Source: Candidatus Doudnabacteria bacterium
GTDB lineage: Bacteria > Patescibacteriota > Doudnabacteria > UBA920
DNA: 64,000 nucleotides
NCBI GenBank assembly: GCA_963837465.1
Contig: CAWINB010000004.1
Coordinates: 266,853-330,852, forward strand
Reading direction: 5' to 3'
The position numbers and the translations under genes are program-made. Below, piece by piece: positions 5,992 to 53,744 of this stretch (position 1 is its first letter; each line of letters starts with the position of its first letter). A model generated the notes under the pieces. The model did not search any database and had not been told where the DNA came from. It saw nothing but the letters and a program-made list of their open reading frames with translations.

Positions 5992-6708
5992 ATGGAAAAT
6001 CTACAACCAATAATATCTTTTACCAACGTCGGAAAAATTTACCCCGGCGGGAGCGTGGGTTTAAAGGATGTCAGTTTTAGCGTCAATCCCGAAGAGTTTT
6101 TTGTGCTGGTCGGGCCTTCGGGCTGCGGCAAGTCCACTATACTTAAAATTATCGCGGGGCTTGAAAAGTCCACCCAGGGAACAGTAAAAAAACCGGACGA
6201 TGTTTCCATGGTTTTTCAAAGCGGCGCGCTTTTTCCCTGGCTGGATGTTTACGAAAATGTGGCTTTGGGACTGCGCGCCAAAAACGAAAGCCAAAGGAAA
6301 ACAGAACAGCAATGCGAAAAATATATTGCCATGACCGGCCTTACGGAATTTGTAAAAAAATACCCGCGCGACCTCTCCGGCGGACAGAAACAGCGTGTGG
6401 GCATTGCCCGCGCCCTGGCGGTTGAGCCAAAAGTCTTGCTGCTCGATGAGCCGTTCTCGGCTTTGGACACAGCCACTACGGAAGAACTGCACAGGGATCT
6501 TATTAAAATCTGGCAGGCCACCAAAAAAACCATTGTTATGGTTTCCCATTCCATAGAAGAAGCCGTGGCCCTGGCCGACCGCGTAATGCTTATGAAAGCC
6601 GGCAGTATTGAACAAACCTTCCAAATAAAACTCCCCTACCCCCGCCGCGAAAAAGAAACCGAATTTATGCACGAAGTCCAAACCATCCGGAAAAAGTTTT
6701 TTGAATAA
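5992..6708 (+). CDS. ABC transporter ATP-binding protein
   Basis: Walker A GPSGCGKST, signature LSGGQKQRV and Walker B LLLDEPFSALD. The start is at MENLQP rather than the upstream ORF-track start. Confidence 0.85.
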   Translation: MENLQPIISFTNVGKIYPGGSVGLKDVSFSVNPEEFFVLVGPSGCGKSTILKIIAGLEKSTQGTVKKPDDVSMVFQSGALFPWLDVYENVALGLRAKNESQRKTEQQCEKYIAMTGLTEFVKKYPRDLSGGQKQRVGIARALAVEPKVLLLDEPFSALDTATTEELHRDLIKIWQATKKTIVMVSHSIEEAVALADRVMLMKAGSIEQTFQIKLPYPRREKETEFMHEVQTIRKKFFE

Positions 6709-9102: not shown

Positions 9103-9753
9103 CTACAGCTTAACCAGCAAGAGCTGGGCTTCGCCGTTGTTTGGACAGCCATCATTATCTATTCCCTCATTAAATAAGTCCTGTTCAACAGACGGAGACA
9201 GGGTAAAGCCGCTGCCGGATTCTATGCCGAGGTAAATTCCGGCTGGCACGTTACAGCCGTTGCGGGTCGTTACGGTGTCCCAGTAGTTATAATCGTATTC
9301 GCCTCCCCAAGGAGTAGTTAAGGGCCATTGGGCAATATAAGGGCCGTCGCCGTTGCCCGAAACTTGGCTCATCCAGTTGGCTGGAACATATGATGGGTAA
9401 GGGTTGGTGTTGGTGTCGCAGTTTATCCAAACGCCGCAGACGCAGGAAGGCTGGTTGGCTGCAACATTGCAATCCTGGGTGGGATTGGCGGTGTTGTATG
9501 GCAAAGGCTTGGAAAGTCCCGGGTCCCAGCCGCGGTTAACATCGGGCGGATAAAAGCCGTTCTCGTTGTAATACAACTCCAAAGCTATCTGAAGTTGCTT
9601 GATGGTGGCCTGTGCCGTTACATCGCGGGCTTTTTCCCTCTCGTTGGACAGGGCTACAATAATTACGGAAGCCAGCAGCCCGATAATCGCGATAACTACA
9701 AGAAGCTCTATCAGGGTGAATCCTTGTTTTGTATTTTTTGTTTTAAAATTCAT
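9103..9753 (-). CDS. Type IV pilin / pseudopilin with prepilin N-terminal methylation motif
   Basis: KQGFTLIELLVVIAIIGLLASVII is the class III signal. The C-terminal region is Cys-rich. The start is placed at MNFKTKN. Confidence 0.8.
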   Translation of the reverse strand: MNFKTKNTKQGFTLIELLVVIAIIGLLASVIIVALSNEREKARDVTAQATIKQLQIALELYYNENGFYPPDVNRGWDPGLSKPLPYNTANPTQDCNVAANQPSCVCGVWINCDTNTNPYPSYVPANWMSQVSGNGDGPYIAQWPLTTPWGGEYDYNYWDTVTTRNGCNVPAGIYLGIESGSGFTLSPSVEQDLFNEGIDNDGCPNNGEAQLLLVKL

Positions 9754-9837
9754 CGCAAAACGCCGTTGTTTTTTTATTTCTTCCATGGAAATTTAGCCAT
9801 GGTATTATTATACCTTGTTTTTTGCTAAAATAATTAT

Positions 9838-10308
9838 ATGTTTAAATTAAAAATTATCGCTTTGGGTAAATTCAAGGAAAAGGCTTACAGGGAACTGGAA
9901 GCGGAGTTTTTAAAGCGCCTGTCCCCTTTTGCGAAAATTAAAGTTGTGGAAATCGCCGAGGAAGCTTATCGCAAGAATGATGATATTGAACGCGTTAAGC
10001 AAAAAGAGGCGGAAAAAATTATAAAACAATTGCCGGAGAATGGAGTAGTTATGCTGCTTGAGGAAAAAGGCACTCCCCGCAACTCTCTTGAATTCGCCCA
10101 GTTTTTGGAAAGAATCGGCTCTCTGGGAAAAGAACTGGTATTTGTAATCGGCAGCGGCGTTGGCTTGCATGAATCGCTAAAACGATATTCCAATTATTCC
10201 GTTTCGCTCTCTCCACTGACATTTCCACACAACATGGCCAGGGTGATTTTGGAAGAGCAACTTTACCGGGCTTGTACGATTTTGGCGCGTAAGGAATACC
10301 ATAAATAG
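9838..10308 (+). CDS. rlmH: 23S rRNA (pseudouridine1915-N3)-methyltransferase RlmH (SPOUT)
   Basis: 156 aa. The YbeA/RlmH pattern is present: the ...LLEEKG...VFVIGSGVGL... motif. Confidence 0.8.
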   Translation: MFKLKIIALGKFKEKAYRELEAEFLKRLSPFAKIKVVEIAEEAYRKNDDIERVKQKEAEKIIKQLPENGVVMLLEEKGTPRNSLEFAQFLERIGSLGKELVFVIGSGVGLHESLKRYSNYSVSLSPLTFPHNMARVILEEQLYRACTILARKEYHK

Positions 10309-12392: not shown

Positions 12393-12466
12393 GGGCCTGT
12401 AGTATAATGGTAATACGGGACTATGGCATAGTTCAGTCGGGGGTCCGATTCCCCCCAGGTCCACCA
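12393..12466 (+). tRNA. tRNA-Ala (anticodon GGC), CCA encoded
   Basis: Acceptor GGGCCUG with G3:U70, anticodon loop AUGGCAU. The 3' half is identical to the Ala-CGC gene. Confidence 0.8.
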
Positions 12467-13929
12467 AAAGAAACTCTCTGGCGATTAGCCACCGCCTTAA
12501 AATCATCTTTCCAAATAAACACAATACTTTTATCACCATTTTCAGTCTTCCACTCAGTGGTTTCCACTAAAGACTTAATAAGCTGACGCTTTTCTTCAGG
12601 GGTTCCTTTCCGATACGTCTGAGTAGGCCTTTTAAGCATTTTTCCAAGCCCGATAATATAATCCATTACATCACTGTCAGCCCGTTCTAAAGCCATTCTG
12701 CGTTCACATAAATCTTGTTCCTTATTAAGTAGTTCAGAATTTTTTACCTTAAATTCATTTTCGGTAATAGTGTTATTCAGACATAGCGTCAGTAGGGCGC
12801 TTTTTTCGTTTTTAAGCTTAGCCGTTTCCAGGTCAACATTTTGGATCTGATTTTTTTGGTCATTTTTTAAATCTTCACGGAATGCTTGGACGGCTTTTAA
12901 AAACTGTGCGGCTTCTTTGTCATCAAATTCCAGCAATTGCAATTGTTTTGCGAACTCATTTTCTACCCATTCCTCTCTAATGTTACACTTACAATCCAAA
13001 TTCCTGCAGGCATAGTAGCGGTATTTATGATGCGAGGAAATGGAACGCAAGGGCTTACCGCAAACACGGCATTTAAGCAGGCCGGAAAACTGGTAAACGA
13101 ACTTTCGGTGGTGCTTGTAACTTTTGTCATCTAAAATTTCCTGCACTTGGTCAAACAATTTTTTGCTTATCAGGGCTTTATGGCTACCTTTTTTTAGCCC
13201 TCCTTTAAACCTGAAAAATCCGTAATAAAAAGGATTGCGTAAAATTTTATACAAAGCCTTGGAGGGCAAAACCTTTGACGGACGTTTCGTAGTAGCCTTA
13301 GTTTTTAGCCCCATATCGGTCAATTTTTTACGCAATTCCTCTATGCTGGTATCGCCATTGGAAAAAATTTCAAACGCCCTGCAAACCATTCGTCCGTAAA
13401 TTGGGTCAGGCTCTTTGTTGCCCCTGCCGACTGAACAGTAGCCGAGCGGGGGAGACATAGGTGATCTTCCATCTTCAACCATGCCATTAATGCCCTTGTG
13501 AATTTCTTGTTTAAGGTTATGCAGATAATACTTTGCTATACCAAATGAAATAGCTGAAAAACCCCAATTAGACTGAGTGCTATTTAGGTTATCTGCAACA
13601 AAATGAATTTCAAACCCTTCTAAAACTAAATCATCACAAACCGCAGCATCATGAAAATTTCTGGCAAATCTATCCAACTTATGCAGGATTAAACCTTTCG
13701 GCTTATAATGCCGCATGTCATTTATCATTTGGTTGAATATTGGACGCTTGTTGTCTTTTGCACTTTGAACTTCTATATATGGTTTGGAGTTTAGCTGAAA
13801 ATTGTTGCGCTTTGCGTATTCCCTAATCTGCCGTTCTTGTTCATCCAAAGAGGCTCCCTCGCTCTGCTCCTCGCTGGAGACACGGACGTAAAAGTAGAAG
13901 AGGCCGTTATGATTATTTTTTTCTGTCAT
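12433..13929 (-). CDS. Large serine recombinase (resolvase catalytic domain + recombinase domain + zinc ribbon)
   Basis: N-terminal YVRVSSEEQ..SLDEQ resolvase motif and a Cys cluster (CRVCGKPL..CRNLDCKC). The C-terminal codons run into the tRNA-Ala 3' end. Confidence 0.85.
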   Translation of the reverse strand: MTEKNNHNGLFYFYVRVSSEEQSEGASLDEQERQIREYAKRNNFQLNSKPYIEVQSAKDNKRPIFNQMINDMRHYKPKGLILHKLDRFARNFHDAAVCDDLVLEGFEIHFVADNLNSTQSNWGFSAISFGIAKYYLHNLKQEIHKGINGMVEDGRSPMSPPLGYCSVGRGNKEPDPIYGRMVCRAFEIFSNGDTSIEELRKKLTDMGLKTKATTKRPSKVLPSKALYKILRNPFYYGFFRFKGGLKKGSHKALISKKLFDQVQEILDDKSYKHHRKFVYQFSGLLKCRVCGKPLRSISSHHKYRYYACRNLDCKCNIREEWVENEFAKQLQLLEFDDKEAAQFLKAVQAFREDLKNDQKNQIQNVDLETAKLKNEKSALLTLCLNNTITENEFKVKNSELLNKEQDLCERRMALERADSDVMDYIIGLGKMLKRPTQTYRKGTPEEKRQLIKSLVETTEWKTENGDKSIVFIWKDDFKAVANRQRVSFGGPGGNRTPD

Positions 13930-14116
13930 ATTTTTTCAGCGTAAAGCTGATCTTTCTGAATTCAGCCTTGGCGAAGTTTAAGGCGCAGAGTAGGGAATAA
14001 GCTCGGCCAAAATCTTTTTGCATTATGCATCTGTTTCTGTCACTTTCTAGTTCAGCTATCTTAGAGCTACATTTTTTTAACCATTCCCATTTTTCTTGCT
14101 TTGACTTAAATTTCAT
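13913..14116 (-). CDS. Hypothetical small basic protein upstream of the recombinase (possible directionality factor, speculative)
   Basis: 67-aa ORF overlapping the recombinase start by 17 nt. No motif recognised. Confidence 0.3.
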   Translation of the reverse strand: MKFKSKQEKWEWLKKCSSKIAELESDRNRCIMQKDFGRAYSLLCALNFAKAEFRKISFTLKKYDRKK

Positions 14117-14352
14117 TTTAAAAAATAAAAAACCACCAGAGCTAAAACCTTTGAGTTGCTTAGACCTAAAGGTTGCTCTAGTGGTGTTATAACTATAGCA
14201 AAATCTTCGCAGGTTTTATACCTTAGGTCTAAGCAATATTAATTTTATACCGTCTAGCTAGTCTGTAAATGGTCAAATCAAAACTAACGTTTTTATTACG
14301 TTTCTAAGTCTTTTAGCTTTTTAGTGTATATATTTATTAAAAGGCTAAAAAA

Positions 14353-16149
14353 CTAGACTTCTTGTTCTCTGTCTGCAAGCGCTGATGACAGTTTGTAAGT
14401 TTTCTTGCCCTTAGCACCTTTTGATTCAAAAATTAGTTTTTCTTCCAGCAAAGCTTTTAGCGCATCATGGACGGCGTTAGCTCCGAGCTTATCTTTTAAG
14501 AGTTTTACTATTTCCTGTCGGGATAGCGTAGTGCCTCCAACAAGAAGCTCAAGGATTTTAGCTTTGGCAACATCTCTTTTTACTTCTTCCTTGAATTCAC
14601 CGACATAGTCAAAACCGAGCTTATCGCCCTGCTGGTTAATGCGAAGCTGAAACGGCTTTAATTCCTCGCCACCGCGTATTTTATTTTGGGAAAAAGTAAG
14701 CGATTTTTCGTTAAAGTTCCGGTCAATCATCAAGTGGGCTTCCACGGCAGCCAGAATGTCGCTAGAGCCACGCATGCTTTGAGAACCTGACCTGCTTTGA
14801 CCAGGCTGTTCTTTTCGGTGATGATGGGTCAGCAGTATCGTAATGCTTTCCCTCAGTAACGGACTAAAACTGTTGAAAAATTCTGCCATTTGCTTGGCGT
14901 CATTTTCCTCTTTTCCATGCACACGCACTAAACTGTCAAAGCAAACAAGTTTGATGTTATGTTCCTTTACAAATTCCAATAGCTTTTCTATATGCTGTTT
15001 GTTATCAACCCGAAATTCGCTTTTAATCCAAAAATAAATCTCCTTACCCTGCTCATGGCCAAGCATTCTTAGTCTGCGTTTAATTTCTCCCCGCTTGTTT
15101 TCCTCATCAATGATCAGCACGTTGCCTTGAGTGGTATTAAAGTGGGAAAAAACGGGTAATCCACTGGCTACAGACTCCGCAAGATGCAACTCAACCCAAG
15201 TTTTAAAACTACGAGGGGCAGCGGATAGGACGGTTATGGCACCAGAAGGAATTAAGCCTTGCACTAACCAAGGAGGTTCTTGTTCAGTTTCTTTTAATAA
15301 GTCATCGGCCAAGATCGGCTGGGTTGCAAATGCTGGCGTCTGTTGGTTATTTTTAAGCTTTCCTCTCTCCTTGTCTCCAATTGAATAGAATACTTGGCCT
15401 AGTTCATCTTCAGGCATTGGCGGAGTATTTTTTTGGTTCCAATCCTGCATATATGGCCATACGACATCAAACCATTTAGCTTCAGGCAGATAATGCATTA
15501 ATTCGCCTGCAATTTGGGCAGCTGAGGAATTACGCTTGCCTTCCGCAACTCCCTTATGAATATTTTGCTCAACTTCTTCCTGGTCATTCTTAACGCCATT
15601 GGCGACTTCATTTTTTATTTCTTTCTTAATAGCTGATATTTCTTTTGGCGAATCACCGTTATTGGCATTTTCCCATTCAAGATACAAAGTTAAAGGGAAT
15701 TCCGCTAACTCTGCATCGTCAAAACTTTTAATCCATTCGTAAATACCCTTTTTTGTTTTTGAAGGGGCTACGATAATGTAGCCCGCCTCTCCTCTGATGT
15801 CCGTTAATTCTCTGATTCTGGTTTTATTGCCTAAGACATAATCTTTTGGAAATTTAAAGAAGTAGTGTCTGCCGTCTCCGCCACTTTTTGCCGTAACAGT
15901 ATCAGGAAGTTCGGGTATAGGCGCACCTTTCTCAAAATCCAAGACCGCTAAACCAGACAGCTTGCCAGTAATGACAGCTATCCCGCTGACATCAGGCCTA
16001 CTAAACCATTCTTTAATTTTTTCTTCTGTAGGTAATTGAGTTTGGTATTTTTTCCAACTTACTAACGGCTTCTTGTCTTGATCTACAGGAAGCAAAGAAA
16101 ACCCTCGTTTTAAGTATGACAATGCCGCCTGTAAAGGTGGCATAAACAT
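14353..16149 (-). CDS. Bifunctional primase-polymerase (Prim-Pol N-terminal) fused to an AAA_25/RepA-like ATPase
   Basis: N-terminal LLPVDQDKKPLVSWKKYQ..GIAVITGKLSGLAVLDFE matches Prim-Pol. The C-terminal half has VLIIDEENK plus a RecA-like P-loop region and HHHRKEQ. Confidence 0.7.
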   Translation of the reverse strand: MFMPPLQAALSYLKRGFSLLPVDQDKKPLVSWKKYQTQLPTEEKIKEWFSRPDVSGIAVITGKLSGLAVLDFEKGAPIPELPDTVTAKSGGDGRHYFFKFPKDYVLGNKTRIRELTDIRGEAGYIIVAPSKTKKGIYEWIKSFDDAELAEFPLTLYLEWENANNGDSPKEISAIKKEIKNEVANGVKNDQEEVEQNIHKGVAEGKRNSSAAQIAGELMHYLPEAKWFDVVWPYMQDWNQKNTPPMPEDELGQVFYSIGDKERGKLKNNQQTPAFATQPILADDLLKETEQEPPWLVQGLIPSGAITVLSAAPRSFKTWVELHLAESVASGLPVFSHFNTTQGNVLIIDEENKRGEIKRRLRMLGHEQGKEIYFWIKSEFRVDNKQHIEKLLEFVKEHNIKLVCFDSLVRVHGKEENDAKQMAEFFNSFSPLLRESITILLTHHHRKEQPGQSRSGSQSMRGSSDILAAVEAHLMIDRNFNEKSLTFSQNKIRGGEELKPFQLRINQQGDKLGFDYVGEFKEEVKRDVAKAKILELLVGGTTLSRQEIVKLLKDKLGANAVHDALKALLEEKLIFESKGAKGKKTYKLSSALADREQEV

Positions 16150-28859: not shown

Positions 28860-29025
28860 AAGAAACAGTCCAAAAAGTTCATTTCGGCTGTAATCCCATA
28901 ATTTCGGCTGTTTGTCATAAAAATTTTTTCCGCTTAGCTCTCTGGCTAAACATCAAAAATTCTTTATGCCAATCGTCACGTAATTCTGGAATTCCATCAC
29001 GAAAGCGACTTTCCGCGCTGTTTCT
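28860..29025. repeat. 166-bp MITE-like intergenic repeat, copy 1, with 7-8 bp terminal inverted repeats (agaaacag...ctgtttct)
   Basis: About 95% identical to 49215-49380. The element starts agaaacag and ends ctgtttct. Confidence 0.7.
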
Positions 29026-32720: not shown

Positions 32721-34977
32721 ATGGCTAAGCGGAAAAAAATACAGGATAAAGAAGGCAGAAAAAAAACCAAACCTGCTCTTAATCTTTCGTACGAGACCAA
32801 GCGCGGGATTATGGTGGTGGTGTTCGTGGTTTTGGCGCTGGTTGCGGTTTTAAGCATCGCCGGGGTTGCGGGGAGTTTGGGCCAGGAGATGCTATGGGGA
32901 TTGTCGCTGGTGTTTGGGCTTATGACTTACGTGGTCCCCTTGATTTTGCTCAGCGTGGCTGTGTCCATATATAAGCAGGATTTGGAAAGACAGGGCCGCG
33001 GCCACAATTTTTACTGGCGCATTTATTTGGGCGCCCTGATTTTGGCAGGCAGTATTGCCGGTTTAGTTCACATTTTTTATTTAAACAGCCAAACCGACGC
33101 GTTTGCCCTAGCCGCCCAGGGAAGAGGCGGCGGCTATTTGGGGGCGGTTTTTTCGTCCCTGCTTTATGTCCACTTGGGTTTTTGGGCCGGTTGTTTGATT
33201 TTATTGGCTTTGGTTTTAATAGGTATGCTGGTGACGTTTGATGTGCCGCTTGGGTCGTTGTGGCCGAAGTCGGAAGAGAAAGAAAATATAGAAGACAGAA
33301 TAAAGAAGACAGAAGACAGTGAATCGGTGGCGGATGTTAAGCTCGCGCCGTTAAAAATCAATGCCATGGGCAAAGAGGGTTTTATTGAGGAAAAGGTTAT
33401 GGATAAAAATCCCAAACTCGCGGATAATAACCTTAAAGAAGATGTTAAATTAAAAACCCAGACCATCCAAACCAAAGCCATCAACACTCCCAAAAACCAG
33501 GCGGTGCAATTGGAGGCTATGACCGTGGAAGACCGCAAAGACTGGAAACTGCCTAATTTTGATATTTTAGACGATAATCATACCGAAGTGGACAGCGGCA
33601 ACATAGAAGTCAACGTGGCCATAATTAAAAAAACCCTGTCCGACTTTGGCATAGAAGTGGAAATGGGCGAGGTTAACGTTGGGCCGACTGTTACGCAATA
33701 CACCCTGCGTCCCGCTACCGGCGTAAAATTGTCGCAAATCGCCGGCCTGCAAAATGATCTGGCCCTGGCTTTGGCCGCTTCCAGCCTGCGTATGGAACTG
33801 CCCATTCCGGGCAAGGCTTTAGTCGGCATAGAAGTCCCGAATAAATCCACGGCCATTGTCCGTTTGCGGGAAGTTATGCAGACCGAAGGTTTTGTTAGCC
33901 ATAAAAGCAAACTGGCCCTGGCTTTGGGCCGCGATGTGGCCGGACATGCTATGGTGGTGGATTTGGCTAAAATGCCGCATTTGCTTATTGCCGGCGCCAC
34001 GGGCACGGGTAAAAGCGTAGCCATTAACAGCCTGTTTATTTCTTTGCTTTACCGCAATACGCCACAGGATGTAAAGTTTATAGTCATTGATCCAAAGCGG
34101 GTGGAAATGACTCCTTACAACGGCATCCCGCATTTGCTGACACCGGTTGTCATTGACCACGAAAAAGCCGTTAACGCGCTAAAGTGGGCGGTGGCCGAAA
34201 TGGACAGGCGCTACAAACTTTTATCCGAAGCCGGCAAGCGCAATATTTCGGAATATAACGAGCACGCGCCCCTGCCAATGCCTTATATCGTGATTTTGGT
34301 GGATGAGCTGGCGGATTTGATGGCCGTGGCTCAAGCCGATGTGGAAGCCACAATCGTACGCTTGTCGCAAATGGCGCTGCGCCATAGGCATCCATTTGGT
34401 TTTAGCCACCCAGCGGCCGTCGGTTGAGATTATCACCGGGCTGATTAAAGCCAACATTACTTCGCGCGTAGCATTTGCCGTGGCTTCGCAAATAGACAGC
34501 CGTACCATTTTGGATTCCTCGGGAGCGGAAAAATTGCTGGGCAACGGCGACATGCTGTATACATCCGCTGAATTTAACAAACCCAAGCGCGTGCAGGGCG
34601 CCTACATTGGCGAAAAGGAAGTTAAAAAAGTGGTGGATTTTTTTAAGGCGCAAACCGGAGCTGTTATTTACAACGAGGAAATTGTGGAAAAACCCAAAAG
34701 GCCCTTGGGTATTCCGGGTATGGAAAGCGAAGACGGCGGCGATAATGACCCGCTTTTGGCGGAAGCCACGGAGGAAGTCAAACGGGCCGGCAAAGCGTCA
34801 GCCTCTTTACTGCAAAGACGTCTGCGCGTAGGCTACGCCCGGGCCGCCCGACTGTTGGATATTATGGAACAAAAAGGCATAATCGGTCCCGGCGAAGGCG
34901 CCAAGCCGCGGGAAGTTTACGGCGTGATTCCGCCGGATGAAAAAGCGGAGTACGGGATAGAAGAGGGGATGCGGTAA
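32721..34977 (+). CDS. ftsK: DNA translocase FtsK/SpoIIIE, split by an apparent frameshift near 34375-34395
   Basis: N-terminal transmembrane helices, Walker A AGATGTGKS, Walker B ILVDELADL. Frame 3 stops at 34427 after RLSQMA. Frame 1 continues with GIHLVLATQRPSVEIITGLIKANI and the C-terminal gamma domain. Confidence 0.8.
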
Positions 34978-44769: not shown

Positions 44770-45102
44770 ATGAGCACGCTGGGGCTTTCCCAGGAAGTTT
44801 TTAAAAAAACTTTCAGAAAAATGGATATGATTCCACTGTCGGAAAATTACCATATGCGTGAATTGGTGGATGAAAGTCCGGAAGGCAGGGCTTACGCGGA
44901 AAAAGTAAAAAATAATTTCAGGCAGGTAAAGCTGATTCCCAAAACATTTTTGCCCTTTGAAGTGGATATTGGGATTTTTGCCGATAAAGTATTAATAACT
45001 TCTTTAAAAAAAGAATATTTTACTGTCAGTATTGAAAGCGCGGAAATCAGCCGGGCGTTTAGGCAGTTGTTTGAGGCGATGTGGCAACTATCTCTCAATT
45101 AA
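44770..45102 (+). CDS. Hypothetical protein
   Basis: 110-aa ORF. Confidence 0.4.
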   Translation: MSTLGLSQEVFKKTFRKMDMIPLSENYHMRELVDESPEGRAYAEKVKNNFRQVKLIPKTFLPFEVDIGIFADKVLITSLKKEYFTVSIESAEISRAFRQLFEAMWQLSLN

Positions 45103-45125
45103 GTGTCAAGGGTGACCCTTGACAC
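45103..45125. repeat. Palindrome gtgtcaagggtgacccttgacac (copy 1), terminator-like with a T-run
   Basis: Perfect 23-nt palindrome. An identical copy lies at 50730-50752. Confidence 0.65.
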
Positions 45126-45191
45126 TGCTGTTTTGTAAAGCCATATTCCGGTTTGCAGGTAAAAATAATGGTTTTGTAGTATAATATAGTT

Positions 45192-47465: not shown

Positions 47466-47675
47466 AATTATTCTAATTAACCTAATTGTTCTAAGTACTC
47501 TAAATAATGTCCAATGTCGAAAGTCCCAGTGGCCGAAAATTTGATCTTGAATTTAATTTTCAATAAAATATACCAAAAAGTAACTAATAAAGACAGCCAC
47601 GACTAGACATTTGGCATTGGACATTGGTGCTTTTTAGGGCACTTAGAACAATTAGGATAATTAGAAATTTAGCAC
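47466..47675. repeat. Long imperfect inverted repeat (about 26-bp arms, roughly 150-bp spacer) upstream of the secreted-protein array
   Basis: ttctaattaacctaattgttctaagt ... acttagaacaattaggataattagaa, with inner aatgtccaatgtc/gacattggacatt pairs. Confidence 0.5.
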
Positions 47676-47708
47676 AAAAAGGTATATAATGAGGTTGTAT
47701 TTATCCAA

Positions 47709-48173
47709 ATGAAACAAAAATTACTGCTAGTTTTAATTATTTTTGGTTTTATAACCGTACCTCTTTTAGTCTCGGCCCACGGGCTGGTTCCCTGCGGCGG
47801 GATTAACGAGAACCCCTGCACGGTTACGGATATTTTTGTTCTGATTGCCAGGGCCACCAACTGGCTTATTGCCGTGGCCGGGTTGTATGCGGTTTACCAG
47901 ATAATCAATCAGGGTTTTTATCTCATAATTTCCGTGGGCAATGAGGAAGCTATTACGGCAAGAAAAAATGCTTTAACCAATGTTGTTATTGGTTTTGTGC
48001 TTATATTATTTGCCTACATGTTTGTTAATACTGTAGTCAATGTTTTATTGACCAGAAGTTTGACCCCTGCCAATCATCCTGAATGCAAACTGGACTTAAC
48101 CAACCCTTTAAATTACCTGACCATAAACCAGAATCCATGCACCAACCTGCCCGATACGGGATTGCACCAATAA
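47709..48173 (+). CDS. Small secreted protein, paralog 1 of the GNEE..EKGK double-TM (pilin-like) family
   Basis: Signal peptide MKQKLLLVLIIFGF..SAHG, conserved C-terminal module ISVGNEEAITARKNALTNVVIGFVLILFAY, and a Cys-containing tail. Confidence 0.6.
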   Translation: MKQKLLLVLIIFGFITVPLLVSAHGLVPCGGINENPCTVTDIFVLIARATNWLIAVAGLYAVYQIINQGFYLIISVGNEEAITARKNALTNVVIGFVLILFAYMFVNTVVNVLLTRSLTPANHPECKLDLTNPLNYLTINQNPCTNLPDTGLHQ

Positions 48174-48186
48174 AATAAAAAATAAA

Positions 48187-48609
48187 ATGAAACAAAATTT
48201 TAAAAAAATATTTTTGTTTGCCGGAATGGCGGTTTTTAATGTTTTAATTTTAAGCGCGTTGCCTTTTAGCGCGGGCGCGACGTTTAACTGCACGACTTAC
48301 CAAAACCAATTTACCCTAAGCACTACTACCAGTGGCACGGTCGTAAACATCTCAACCGGCTATCCCGTCTACTGCTCGGCCGGCGACTTGGCGGTGCAGG
48401 TTATTAATTACCTTTCGGCTATATCCGGGACGGTGGTAATAATATTTTTAATCATTGGCGGGTTTTTGTATGTAACTTCCGCCGGCAACGAGGAGCAGTC
48501 GGAAAAAGCCAGGAAGATCATAACCAATTCCATTATTGGCCTGGTGGTAATTATTTTGGCCTTTACGATAGTAAAAGTGGTTTCGAGTTTGCTGACGCTT
48601 GGGCATTAA
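48187..48609 (+). CDS. Small secreted protein, paralog 2
   Basis: MKQ signal peptide, C-terminal IIGGFLYVTSAGNEEQSEKARKIITNSIIGLVVIILAFTIV. Confidence 0.6.
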   Translation: MKQNFKKIFLFAGMAVFNVLILSALPFSAGATFNCTTYQNQFTLSTTTSGTVVNISTGYPVYCSAGDLAVQVINYLSAISGTVVIIFLIIGGFLYVTSAGNEEQSEKARKIITNSIIGLVVIILAFTIVKVVSSLLTLGH

Positions 48610-48805
48610 CCCGCAGTACATTCGCGTTGGCATCCCATAAACGGGCCAACTGCGGTTGTTGTTTTTCCATCAAAATTTTCCGATTAACCCGATTCTCAGG
48701 CTGTTCTGATTTTTAAGGCGATATTTTTTGATTCTTATATTTTATGCTATAATTACAGCAACTAAATTTTAGTATCACTACTAAACTTGGAAGGGGGTGA
48801 ACAGA

Positions 48806-49210
48806 TTGAAACAAATAATGCAAAAAATAAATTTTCTTAAAGCGGCGGAAGTTATTTTGGCTGTTTTGCTGGTGTTCGCCCCGTTTTTGGTAACCGCCCA
48901 GTTTAGCCCAAGCAACAACCAGGCTCTTTGCAACGGCACCGGTCTTAATTGTCAGTCTACCAGTGTTAACGGCCTCATCCAAACCGTAATAGACTGGCTT
49001 TTGGGGATAGCTTTTGCTCTTGCCGTGCTGTTTTTGATAATCGGCGGCTTTTGGTACATCACTTCCGCCGGTAACGAAGAAACCGCGGAAAAAGGTAAAA
49101 GTACGGCCATTAACGCTATTATTGGTATTGTAATAATTATTTTGTCTTACGTTATTATTAACGTAATCTCCAACCTTGTCGCCAGCCCCAACTCTACCAC
49201 CGCGCCGTAA
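48806..49210 (+). CDS. Small secreted protein, paralog 3
   Basis: TTG start giving MKQIMQ with the SD ggaagggggtga. C-terminal IIGGFWYITSAGNEETAEKGKSTAINAIIGIVIIILSYVI. Confidence 0.6.
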   Translation: MKQIMQKINFLKAAEVILAVLLVFAPFLVTAQFSPSNNQALCNGTGLNCQSTSVNGLIQTVIDWLLGIAFALAVLFLIIGGFWYITSAGNEETAEKGKSTAINAIIGIVIIILSYVIINVISNLVASPNSTTAP

Positions 49211-49214
49211 AGAT

Positions 49215-49380
49215 AAGAAACATTCCAAAAAGTCCATTTCGGCTGTAATCCCATAATTTCGGCTGTTTGTCATAAAAATTTTTTCCGCTTAGCTCTCTGG
49301 CTAAACATCAAAAATTCTTTATGCCAATCGTCACGTAATTCTGGAATTCCATCACGAAAGCGACTTTTCGTACCGTTTCT
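49215..49380. repeat. 166-bp MITE-like intergenic repeat, copy 2
   Basis: About 95% identical to 28860-29025, in the same orientation. Confidence 0.7.
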
Positions 49381-49495
49381 TTGATACCTGTTCGGAAATA
49401 ATTTTAACAGATGTGCCCCAAGTTTACATTAGCTTGGGGCCAGGCCCGAGAGCGAAAGTTTTTTACTTTCGGACCTGTGATTATTAAGCGATGCC

Positions 49496-49912
49496 ATGAA
49501 ACAAAAAATAATATCAAAAATTAAATTTATAAAATACACACTAACTTTGGCGGCCTTGTTTGTTCCTGTTCTGGCTTCGGCCCAAAGCAACGCGGTAACC
49601 GGAGGCCTGCAAAATGCCACGGGCCTGCAGTCACTTTTCGGCACAGGCGGCTTGAATAATTCCCAGAGCTTGAGTGATCTTATAGTTAATGTCGTAAGGT
49701 TACTGCTGACTTTTTCCGGTGTGATAGCCATACTGTTTGTAATCATTGGCGGTTTCCAGTACGTAACCTCCGGCGGTAACGAAGAAACTGCGGAAAAAGG
49801 CAAAAAAACGGTAATCAACGCCATCATCGGCATTATTCTGATAATCCTTTCCTACGTTATTATAAACGTCATTGCCAATACGGTGAGTAGTAATAGTGGG
49901 TATGGGTTTTGA
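49496..49912 (+). CDS. Small secreted protein, paralog 4
   Basis: Signal peptide ..VLASAQ. C-terminal IIGGFQYVTSGGNEETAEKGKKTVINAIIGIILIILSYVI. Confidence 0.6.
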   Translation: MKQKIISKIKFIKYTLTLAALFVPVLASAQSNAVTGGLQNATGLQSLFGTGGLNNSQSLSDLIVNVVRLLLTFSGVIAILFVIIGGFQYVTSGGNEETAEKGKKTVINAIIGIILIILSYVIINVIANTVSSNSGYGF

Positions 49913-49958
49913 TGGGCTTTAATTAATTTTTTACAAAGTATCATCCGCCGGAGCTTTA

Positions 49959-50624
49959 GTGAAGATAAATAAAGACTTTAAAATGTTTCAAATAAATCAA
50001 AATAAAGGTTTTATTTTTCAGTTTTTTGTTTTAACTATTTTAAGCTTGTTGTTTTTTGCTTTTTTTGATACTGCCTTGGCCCAAACGGCTGGTACTGCCA
50101 CGGCAGGCACTCCTTGCGCGGTTGTTGGGACACAAGATATCTGTGGTGCTGGCTTGATATGCTGCCTTGGTACGTCGGGAAGTAATAATACCTGTCAGGC
50201 TGTCCAACAGTGCAATGGCGGGACCAATACACCTACTCCTACTCCTCAAATACCATCTTCCATTACTAACATATCTCCCTTTACAGCACCTTGTCCGCAG
50301 AACTACTCTTTACTTAACGGCCTCTGTCTGCCATCCCAAGCACCTTTTGGAACCACGGGACTTGCTGGCGCTACCAGCCTTTCGGCTCTTTTGGTCTATG
50401 TCATTCAAATCCTTTTAACCTTTGCCGGAGTTTTGGCGGTGTTAATGCTGGTGGTCGGCGGTTACTGGTATATGGCGGCCGGCGGTAATGAGGAACTAGC
50501 GGAAAAAGGAAAGAAAACCATTATCAATTTTGTGCTTGGCTTGGTTATCATTATTATGGCTTACACGCTCGTGGCCATTCTTTCCGGAGCGCTTACGGGT
50601 AATACCGGTTTTCCTAATCTATAG
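49959..50624 (+). CDS. Small secreted protein, paralog 5 (longer Cys/Thr/Pro-rich variable region)
   Basis: Signal peptide ..ALAQ, six Cys in the variable region, C-terminal VVGGYWYMAAGGNEELAEKGKKTIINFVLGLVIIIMAY. Confidence 0.6.
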   Translation: MKINKDFKMFQINQNKGFIFQFFVLTILSLLFFAFFDTALAQTAGTATAGTPCAVVGTQDICGAGLICCLGTSGSNNTCQAVQQCNGGTNTPTPTPQIPSSITNISPFTAPCPQNYSLLNGLCLPSQAPFGTTGLAGATSLSALLVYVIQILLTFAGVLAVLMLVVGGYWYMAAGGNEELAEKGKKTIINFVLGLVIIIMAYTLVAILSGALTGNTGFPNL

Positions 50625-50729
50625 AGAAATATTCAAAGCCGCTTCCTGGATTTTTATTGGAGACGGCTTTTACGTTGCCAGATAGCATATAAAACTGTTA
50701 AAATAAATAAATTGTTTCGGATAACGGCA

Positions 50730-50752
50730 GTGTCAAGGGTGACCCTTGACAC
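50730..50752. repeat. Palindrome gtgtcaagggtgacccttgacac (copy 2), 5 nt upstream of tRNA-Leu
   Basis: Identical to 45103-45125. Confidence 0.65.
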
Positions 50753-50757
50753 TATTT

Positions 50758-50844
50758 GGGGACGTGGCGGAATTGGCATACGCACAGCGCTTAGGACGCT
50801 GCTCCTGAAAAGGATTGTGGGTTCAAATCCCACCGTCCCCACCA
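50758..50844 (+). tRNA. tRNA-Leu (anticodon TAG), long variable arm, CCA encoded
   Basis: Acceptor GGGGACG/CGUCCCC, anticodon loop CUUAGGA, extended variable arm. Confidence 0.8.
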
Positions 50845-50974: not shown

Positions 50975-52861
50975 ATGGGAAAAATTGTAAAAAATATTGT
51001 CCTTATTTTAATCGGTTTTCTTATAATCACCGCGATTTTTGCCGCTTTTAGCCAGAACACCAAAGTTACCCCTGTGCCGATTTCCGACATAGCCACCCTA
51101 CTCAGCCAGAACAAAGTGGACACTCTTACGGTTACGGACACCACGGTTACAGCCAAGCTTAAAAATAGCGATACGGAAGACCAGGCCACGGTAATCAGCA
51201 ACACCGACGTAATTAGTTTTTTTAAGGATACCGGAGTATCAGCTGGCAGCCTGATGCCGAATGAGGTAAAAATTGTCTACGACAACGGCAGCACGGCCGC
51301 CGGAATTGCCGACGCTATTCTGCCGTTTTTAATCCCGTTTATTCTGGTTTCTCTGTTTGTTTATTTTATGATGCGCCAGGTTCAGGGCAGCAACAATCGC
51401 GCGCTTAGCTTTGGACAAAGTTCGGTAAAGCTTAACGACGAGCGCAAAAACCGCGTCAAGTTCAGCGATGTTGCGGGCGCCAAAGAAGCCAAGGAAGAGT
51501 TAAAAGAAATAGTGGAATTTTTAAGGTTCCCCCAAAAGTTTTTGTCCTTGGGCGCCAAAATTCCCAAAGGGGTGCTGCTTTTAGGAAGTCCGGGCGTGGG
51601 AAAAACCTTGCTGGCCCGCGCCGTGGCTGGCGAAGCCAACGTGCCGTTTTTTCATATATCCGGTTCGGAATTTGTGGAAATGTTTGTGGGCGTGGGAGCT
51701 TCGCGCGTGCGGGATTTGTTTAAAAAAGCCAAAAAGAACGCTCCCTGCATAATTTTTGTGGATGAAATAGACGCGGTCGGACGCCAGCGCGGAGCGGGCG
51801 TGGGCGGAGGCCATGACGAGCGCGAACAGACGCTGAACCAGATTCTGGTGGAAATGGACGGTTTTGAAACCGATACCAACGTTATTGTTATGGCCGCCAC
51901 CAACAGGCCGGACGTGTTGGACCCGGCTCTTTTGAGACCCGGACGATTTGACCGCCAGGTATTTTTGGACCTGCCGGACATAAAAGACCGCGAAGAAATT
52001 TTAAAAGTCCACTCCAAGAACAAGCCTTTGGCCAAAGATGTCAACTTGCGCAAAATCGCCGAGCGCACGCCGGGTTTTTCCGGCGCCGACCTGGCCAATT
52101 TGATTAACGAAGCCGCTATTTTTGCCGCCAGGCAGGACAAAAAAGAAATTACGGCCTACGAGCTTAAGGAATCCATTGAAAAGGTTATGATGGGACCCCA
52201 GCGCAAAAGTATGGTAATGTCCGCCCAGGAAAAGGAACTGACGGCGTACCATGAGGGCGGCCACGCGCTTATTGGCAGCGTATTGCTATATTCCGATCCG
52301 GTTCACAAAGTATCCGTTATCTCCCGCGGTCGCGCTTTGGGTTACACCATGAAACTGCCGGTGGAAGACAAGCATACCCACACCCGCCAGAGCTTTTTTG
52401 ACGAAATCGCGGCTTTGCTGGGAGGTTACGCCGCGGAAAAATTGGTGTTCAATGAACTGACCACCGGCGCCTCCAATGACCTGAAAGTTGCCACCGGCAT
52501 GGCCAGGAAGCTGGTTATGAATTACGGCATGAGCGAGGAGATTGGGCCTATTGCCCTGGGCGAACAGCATGACATGGTATTTTTGGGCAGGGAAATCTCC
52601 GAACAGAGAAACTACAGCGAATCCGTGGCTAAAACCATAGACGAGGAAGTTTCCAAGATTATGAAAGCCGGACTTTCCCGCGCCACCGAACTTTTAATCA
52701 AATACAAAAGCTATTTGGATATCATAGCTCAAAGGCTGGTTAAAGAAGAAACTTTGGAGCAGGAACAGTTTTATGAGATTGTTAAAGATATCATTCCGGC
52801 CGGAAAAAAGACCGTCCCGGAGTTTGACGTTACGGAAGCTCCGGCCCCAAACCCGCTATGA
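50975..52861 (+). CDS. ftsH: ATP-dependent zinc metalloprotease FtsH
   Basis: Walker [12 protein letters not shown] region, and the zinc-binding motif HEGGHAL. Confidence 0.95.
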
Positions 52862-53667: not shown

Positions 53668-53744
53668 GGACGCGTAGCTCAGTTGGTTAGAGCGACTCGT
53701 TGACGTCGAGTAGGTCCCCCGTTCGAATCGGGCCGCGTCCACCA
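53668..53744 (+). tRNA. tRNA-Val (anticodon GAC), CCA encoded
   Basis: Acceptor GGACGCG/CGCGUCC, anticodon loop UUGACGU. Confidence 0.8.

Follow-up and report, generated by a model that had tools for sequence, protein, structure and literature searches.

Five tandem PF18895 paralogs form a probable VirB2-like pilin array in a Candidatus Doudnabacteria genome

We analyzed a 64-kb window (the whole stretch of DNA considered here, part of an 868,218-bp contig of Candidatus Doudnabacteria) and found, at positions 47709 to 50624, five consecutive tandem open reading frames (ORFs), all on the + strand, that encode small proteins of the family PF18895 (T4SS_pilin). With moderate confidence, we explain the locus as a chromosomal array of VirB2-like pilins of a type IV secretion system (T4SS), five paralogs that diverged long ago, in a Patescibacteria genome of the Candidatus Doudnabacteria type. 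The array is of an already described kind, because VirB2-like pilin arrays have been published for Patescibacteria and Southlakia epibionticum has a six-pilin array that it cannot grow without (PMC10633639, PMC12857230); the example from Doudnabacteria is what is new here. It has the form by which such arrays were defined by Quinonero-Coronel et al. in 2025 (PMC12102498), namely at least two VirB2-like pilin genes in tandem or one gene apart in a Patescibacteria genome, with five genes in tandem in this case.

The genes, numbered 1 to 5 in their order, encode proteins of 154 amino acids (aa) (paralog 1, 47709 to 48173), 140 aa (paralog 2, 48187 to 48609), 137 aa (paralog 3, 48797 to 49210), 138 aa (paralog 4, 49496 to 49912), and 221 aa (paralog 5, 49959 to 50624). 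The length of paralog 3 is counted from a GTG at 48797; a conserved TTG at 48806 would give 134 aa and is probably the true start, since it yields MKQ... as in the neighbors. The layout GAGGGG-GTG-...-TTG-AAA-CAA around this start was kept in most orthologues. A match to the sigma-70-like promoter consensus (TAGAAA-17-TATAAT, 47662 to 47690, + strand), a consensus match only, lay 19 nt upstream of the paralog 1 ATG, after the 3' arm of an inverted repeat described below.

A sequence-only reading of this DNA had described the genes as tandem paralogs with a signal-peptide-like N-terminus, a paralog-specific middle region, and a conserved C-terminal module, and the ORFs, their alignment, and the hydropathy profiles bore this out. 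All five proteins exhibited one N-terminal and two C-terminal hydrophobic segments, the latter with Kyte-Doolittle means of 2.4 to 2.9 apart from a weaker first segment in paralog 1 (~1.7). An invariant G-N-E-E loop separated the two C-terminal helices, and the sequences upstream of the helices were little alike. The consensus proposed for the module fitted paralogs 2 to 5, but paralog 1 had the most divergent core (VGNEEAITARK). The N-terminal segments of paralogs 1 to 5 were closed by A-x-A-like (small-x-small) motifs, VSA|HG, AGA|TF, VTA|QF, ASA|QS, and ALA|QT, respectively, which the -3/-1 rule would make signal peptidase I sites. An AlphaFold2 model of paralog 4 (62 sequences) showed a helix-loop-helix hairpin at residues 59 to 90 and 96 to 132 with a predicted local distance difference test score above 90, and low confidence elsewhere. 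Hydropathy, the A-x-A motifs, the GNEE loop, and this hairpin together describe the topology of a VirB2-type pilin, with a putatively cleaved signal peptide, two transmembrane helices, and a short loop. The middle regions had been called Cys-rich in several paralogs. Paralogs 1 to 5 contained 4, 2, 2, 0, and 8 Cys, so that paralog 5 has eight rather than the reported six and paralog 4 has none. Paralog 1 carries C29/C37 in a short N-terminal ectodomain and two further Cys in a C-terminal tail that is predicted to be extracellular, and paralog 5 displays its eight Cys in an ectodomain of ~100 aa followed by a TPTPTP linker and the conserved core.

We then ran the profile searches that the sequence-only reading had proposed for its suggestion of T4SS-type (TrbC/VirB2-like) pilins, and the results supported it. 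All five proteins scored above the gathering score of PF18895 (26.6 bits), with 32.4, 45.4, 51.2, 46.8, and 32.7 bits for paralogs 1 to 5, and the matches covered positions 2 to 71, 10 to 71, 2 to 71, 3 to 71, and 13 to 70 of the 71-position profile. Pairwise identity among the paralogs was 26 to 50%, and of all window ORFs 50 aa or longer, a family hidden Markov model picked exactly these five. Because all five independently pass the gathering score of one Pfam family and the family model finds only them, the five-gene family is not a chance grouping, and membership in PF18895 is established at the level of sequence profiles. Paralogs 4 and 5 also came just under the gathering score of PF04956 (TrbC/VirB2; 27.9 bits), with 25.8 bits (E 1.3e-5) and 24.8 bits (E 2.6e-5) and near-whole profiles aligned. 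What ties the family to classical VirB2 is thus these near-threshold matches, the similar topology, and the fact that PF18895 has served as a VirB2 profile in published work. The best NCBIfam matches were all sub-threshold; for NF045849 (Mbov_0395 pilin-like conjugal transfer protein), paralogs 1 to 5 scored 15.8, 36.0, 33.4, 33.4, and 26.2 bits, none reaching the 40-bit cut-off, although those of paralogs 2 to 4 spanned nearly the whole 80-residue profile.

Homologues of paralog 4 (n = 208) all carried PF18895, and the named ones came from Candidatus Doudnabacteria. A scan of one genome per species yielded 75 related loci, nearly all labeled Doudnabacteria or Patescibacteria; the name "uncultured Candidatus Saccharibacteria" attached to many of them we take as a generic label. 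These relatives agree with the likely episymbiont lineage that had been suggested. Practically every related locus with enough flanking sequence contained 5 to 8 tandem pilin genes, and positional counterparts of the window genes could be recognized. Paralog 1 corresponds to the first pilin of the other arrays, paralog 2 to the third of six-gene arrays (the second of five-gene arrays), and paralogs 3, 4, and 5 to the fourth, fifth, and sixth, respectively; the long second pilin (350 to 450 aa) of six-gene arrays was missing in the window and in several other five-gene arrays. The paralog 1 orthologue stood first in the array in 48 of 48 clear cases. Full-length identity between orthologues was 43 to 75%, higher than that between paralogs, and the ectodomain Cys pairs were kept: C29/C37 of paralog 1 in 47 of 47 orthologues, C35/C63 of paralog 2 in 16 of 16, C45/C52 of paralog 3 in 42 to 44 of 48, and C112/C123 of paralog 5 in 15 of 15. 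Given the positional orthologues, the excess of orthologue over paralog identity, and the conserved Cys pairs, the paralogs are old, each a distinct subunit under structural constraint, and do not form a recently amplified or hypervariable cassette. The conserved Cys pairs would also fit an extracytoplasmic location. The core of paralog 3 was the best conserved across genomes (75 to 90% identity), and we therefore regard paralog 3 as a candidate major subunit.

The divergent regions had been thought to reflect diversifying selection, which our comparison did not support, since the middle regions are conserved between positional orthologues (up to 75% full-length identity) with their Cys pairs kept. 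Nonsynonymous divergence (dN, Nei-Gojobori) was ~2 to 5 times higher in the ectodomain than in the core in most orthologue comparisons. In the dN/dS check that had been recommended, the ratio (omega) stayed under 1 wherever it could be calculated, one short signal-peptide segment excepted, although synonymous divergence (dS) was saturated. In the long pilins of relatives, the PF18895 module was C-terminal and preceded by ectodomains of ~200 to 440 aa, and the architecture is thus a variable ectodomain on a conserved pilin core. One 404-aa pilin (locus L020, 2418 to 3632) contained a divergent InlB B-repeat domain (PF18998) ahead of its PF18895 core, and the ectodomains of the other long pilins (350 to 530 aa) matched no recognizable family.

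The array lies among housekeeping genes. Directly upstream are genes for a ComM-like Mg-chelatase ATPase, a GalU-type nucleotidyltransferase, and an ABC solute-binding protein (SBP). Its conserved downstream border is tRNA-Leu(tag) (50758 to 50844, + strand), followed by ftsH (50975 to 52861); the same tRNA region was found downstream of the arrays in loci L002 and L006. Three contigs with close homologues showed the same order, with ComM, GalU, SBP, five or six PF18895 genes, FtsH, RNase III, and SMC, and among the 75 loci SBP was an array neighbor in 58, ComM in 54, and FtsH in 48. Farther out, the window encodes housekeeping proteins including RecA, FtsK, SMC, RNase III, and Mur/Ddl enzymes. 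Ten large neighbors of the related arrays were otherwise unexplained, and none of them had a T4SS domain except a protein with a soluble lytic transglycosylase (SLT) domain in two loci. This VirB1-like protein (686 aa), encoded directly after the array in L067 (12301 to 14361, - strand) and L061 (12299 to 13864, - strand), both from more divergent genomes, contains the only T4SS-associated domain adjoining any array. Besides, a lone PF18895-like gene was observed at 10007 to 10390 of L052, inside a cell-division cluster (mraZ, rsmH, ftsL-like, pilin-like, penicillin-binding protein [PBP]); it belongs to the same 1.21-Mb genome as the six-gene array L022.

If the five proteins are indeed T4SS pilins, Sec would insert their preproteins into the membrane and signal peptidase I would remove the signal peptides. 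The resulting hairpins would form a membrane pool in which both the N-terminal ectodomain and the C-terminus are exposed on the outside and the charged GNEE..EKGK loop stays in the cytoplasm, as in the TrbC/VirB2/TraA pilins. From this pool, a VirB4-type ATPase encoded at some other genomic location would extract the subunits and polymerize them into a surface filament or conduit. The machine in question would be the Patescibacteria T4SS, which is essential to the epibiotic growth of S. epibionticum. Paralogs 3 and 4, which are short and the best conserved, may serve as bulk subunits, whereas paralogs 1 and 5 and the long second pilin of the relatives, with larger disulfide-bonded ectodomains, may be specialized or minor subunits that touch the host surface. 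A further proposal, which we put forward as tentative, is that the Doudnabacteria array is a core chromosomal locus uncoupled from T4SS genes, whose 5 to 8 paralogs have fixed structural roles in a heteropolymeric filament or work without a T4SS.

Several results weigh against assigning the proteins to a T4SS pilus. None of the five reached the gathering score of PF04956, and paralogs 1 to 3 had no match to it. Alignment with hhalign to VirB2/TrbC proteins of six plasmids with an MPF_T (mating-pair formation class T) system was not significant (probability 2.6%, E 0.018) and covered the first helix only. A sequence-profile search of the PDB gave no match, and fold searches were non-specific, as expected for a simple helical hairpin. 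The cleavage of the putative signal peptides is read from the -3/-1 rule only. In addition, a domain scan of the window ORFs of at least 110 aa (nearly all of them, every large one included) found no homologue of VirB4, VirB6, VirB3, or VirD4 and no relaxase domain, and no large Walker-A ORF fit for VirB4 was present within 10 kb of any array in the 75 related loci. The sequence-only reading was therefore correct that no VirB4 homologue lies nearby, and this is the rule for the lineage. Finally, a pilus has not been seen in any Patescibacterium according to the reviews consulted (PMC12857230).

The closest known systems are the six-pilin array of S. epibionticum ML1 (T4SS cluster SEML1_0006-0019), the "Sec-secreted array" of Nanosynbacter lyticus TM7x, and the arrays catalogued in PMC12102498. 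In that study, 3,035 Patescibacteria genomes were searched with PF04956, PF18895, and other profiles. VirB4 was reported in 2,417 of the 3,035 assemblies and VirB2-like pilins in 1,948 VirB4-positive assemblies, but the pilins were near virB4 in only 1,135 of these 1,948. The catalogue comprised 441 arrays of 2 to 11 pilin genes from 383 assemblies with a mean identity of 25%, and a parallel was drawn with the VirB2 paralogs of Bartonella and Anaplasma; in Table S1, one assembly of the GTDB class Doudnabacteria was scored VirB4-positive. The window array shares with these arrays the PF18895 family, the tandem same-strand arrangement, the low identity between paralogs, the Sec-type signal, the conserved helical hairpin with a divergent exposed part, and the monoderm ultrasmall host. 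However, the arrays highlighted in PMC12102498 are from Microgenomatia and Saccharimonadia, and the window array is from the class Doudnabacteria. Furthermore, the array of S. epibionticum lies inside its T4SS cluster, as opposed to the window array, whose conserved housekeeping neighborhood is free of T4SS genes for 47 kb upstream and 13 kb downstream. The positional orthology, the Cys pairs, and the interspersed PF05635 cassettes (see below) are unmentioned for the published arrays in the available portions of these sources.

As for function, Wang et al. (PMC10633639) detected no recognizable relaxase or coupling protein in the T4SS cluster of S. epibionticum. A 2025 review (PMC12857230) describes its six VirB2-like pilins as conserved in structure and divergent in sequence and speculates that a pilus serves as a conduit to the host; a 2024 perspective called the role of the T4SS in Saccharibacteria "completely unknown" (PMC11665869).

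Comparisons with other T4SS pilins showed both similarities and differences. The MPF_T TrbC/VirB2 proteins (PF04956; T-pilus, RP4, pKM101) also have a long signal peptide, two hydrophobic helices, and a short charged loop, and PF04956 could be aligned near full length to paralogs 4 and 5 with E values of ~1e-5. However, those matches stayed below the gathering score, as noted above, and the window proteins have N-terminal ectodomains of considerable size that contain disulfide pairs. Moreover, all six plasmid virB2/trbC genes that we fetched lay between virB1 and virB3, whereas the window genes adjoin no virB1, virB3, or virB4. The T4SSs of Anaplasma phagocytophilum and Bartonella likewise have several divergent pilins encoded one after another, which the literature discusses as a source of surface variation; these copies belong to diderm hosts, are of the PF04956 type, and are thought to vary for immune evasion, in contrast to the old, one-to-one orthologous, and constrained copies of the window. 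Mbov_0395 / ICE_MMCAP2_0565 of the Mycoplasma integrative and conjugative element (ICE) is a similarly small two-helix protein, from a wall-less or monoderm MPF_FATA-type system, but it is a single-copy ICE gene and not part of a chromosomal array.

The main rival to the T4SS pilin explanation is that of surface display independent of any T4SS, in which the PF18895 hairpin would be only a Sec/YidC-inserted anchor for ectodomains acting as adhesins or envelope organizers, with no polymerization and no VirB4. The uncoupling of the array from T4SS genes in this lineage and its embedding in housekeeping synteny are consistent with such a role, as are the singleton in the mraZ-rsmH-ftsL-PBP cluster of L052, the wide span of ectodomain sizes (~15 to ~440 aa), and the marginal homology to true VirB2. 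However, the core is conserved far beyond the needs of an anchor, with the invariant GNEE and the high identity of the paralog 3 core between genomes. According to PMC12102498, most assemblies of other Patescibacteria classes that have both kinds of gene carry PF18895 genes next to virB4, and in S. epibionticum the pilin genes are essential together with the T4SS. We consider the display explanation unlikely, though it carries some weight. An improbable one is that the paralogs are interchangeable major pilins under diversifying selection for antigenic or host-range variation, as proposed for the VirB2 copies of Anaplasma and Bartonella and raised for Patescibacteria arrays in PMC12102498. The paralogs do differ chiefly in their exposed N-terminal part, and the ectodomains do accumulate nonsynonymous changes faster than the cores. 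Yet the paralogs have one-to-one positional orthologues across widely diverged genomes, with paralog 1 always first in the clear cases, and the ectodomains retain their Cys pairs and much of their sequence. There are also no recent duplicates (top paralog identity 50%), and omega points the same way, although with saturated dS.

Two further explanations fared worse. The proteins are small and have two or three hydrophobic segments, and repeats occupy the spacers, which might suggest holin-like or bacteriocin immunity proteins or a phage or mobile-element module. We found no holin or immunity family among the matches in Pfam, NCBIfam, or PHROGs, where the single match (E = 0.008) was to a PHROG of unknown function, and no relatives among IMG/VR viral contigs or plasmids. 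The core-genome position is conserved, and the G+C content does not stand out from that of the window. This explanation is very unlikely, and neither the unrelated family nor the lack of export that the sequence-only reading had named as grounds for abandoning the pilin idea was observed. We find it hardly credible that a diversity-generating retroelement acts on these genes, an idea that comes from the Avd-like PF05635 genes near the arrays of relatives: in 19 of the 75 loci such an ORF immediately precedes pilin 1 or separates two pilins, and the window keeps one cassette relic. No reverse transcriptase was found in the scanned window ORFs or the annotated flanks, however, and a search of the region revealed no template/variable repeat pair. 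Furthermore, these genomes have PF05635 genes at other sites as well (L069), which better fits a selfish cassette.

The inverted repeat that had been reported around the array is real but does not bracket it, because both arms lie upstream of gene 1. It is an imperfect hairpin of ~196 nt (47471 to 47666; arms 47471 to 47504 and 47633 to 47666 plus an inner pair) with a folding energy of -75.6 kcal/mol (z = -8.8), and it occurs once in the window. Its arms resemble the sequences that flank a PF05635 gene at the same syntenic spot in L004 and L006, and a faint remnant of the PF05635 C-terminus is present between them at 47508 to 47591; the repeat is therefore what remains of a gene cassette bounded by terminal inverted repeats, and probably not part of the pilin function. 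PF05635 (23S_rRNA_IVP, a four-helix bundle) genes flanked by inverted repeats of ~35 to 55 nt, as at 6377 to 6878 of L004 and 6308 to 6764 of L006, were observed directly upstream of or inside the arrays in those 19 loci, and the unit looks like a selfish cassette of the intervening sequence (IVS) type that inserts in intergenic spacers. The interleaved repeat resembling a miniature inverted-repeat transposable element (MITE) was also confirmed, as a single 166-nt element in the spacer of paralogs 3 and 4 (49215 to 49380). It is non-coding and weakly palindromic, has a second copy at 28860 to 29025 (96% identical), and had no copies in the related loci. In addition, a near-perfect 25-nt palindrome with the core GTGTCAAGGGTGACCCTTGACAC was found just 5' of tRNA-Leu (50729 to 50753) and downstream of an ORF ending at 45102 (45102 to 45132); it looks like a repeated hairpin of the repetitive extragenic palindromic or terminator type.

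Elsewhere in the window, a type IV pilin-like protein with an N-terminal methylation motif, similar to type II secretion system (T2SS) protein G, is encoded at 9103 to 9786 (- strand), and the genome therefore also has unrelated pilins of the type IV pilus/T2SS type. A large serine recombinase gene (12433 to 13929, - strand) overlaps the 3' part of tRNA-Ala(ggc) (12393 to 12466); beyond it lie a Prim-Pol/AAA_25 primase-helicase ORF (14353 to 16149, - strand) and ORFs without family matches, and 12393 to 16149 is probably a mobile element integrated at the tRNA. FtsK is encoded by two overlapping ORFs, one with the four-transmembrane, alpha, and motor domains (32721 to 34427) and a separate one with the gamma domain (34339 to 34977), a split that stems either from a true frameshift or from an error in sequencing. 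ARAGORN called a tRNA-Val(gac) at 53668 to 53744 that the Rfam tRNA model did not report at its gathering score (7 versus 6 tRNAs).

The T4SS of Patescibacteria is essential for epibiotic growth in the single species tested, and its pilin series sets it apart from other monoderm T4SSs. The locus leaves the overall picture of this system unchanged and adds a clean example from another class, in which the arrays are universal, syntenic, and detached from virB4, with one-to-one orthologous paralogs and constrained ectodomains. These features favor fixed, distinct pilin roles over antigenic variation, and the conserved Cys pairs and the GNEE loop are concrete targets in any culturable relative. 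If the tentative proposal of fixed roles is true, a heteropolymer of bulk subunits and subunits with disulfide-bonded ectodomains would represent a multi-pilin architecture unknown for VirB2-type pili.

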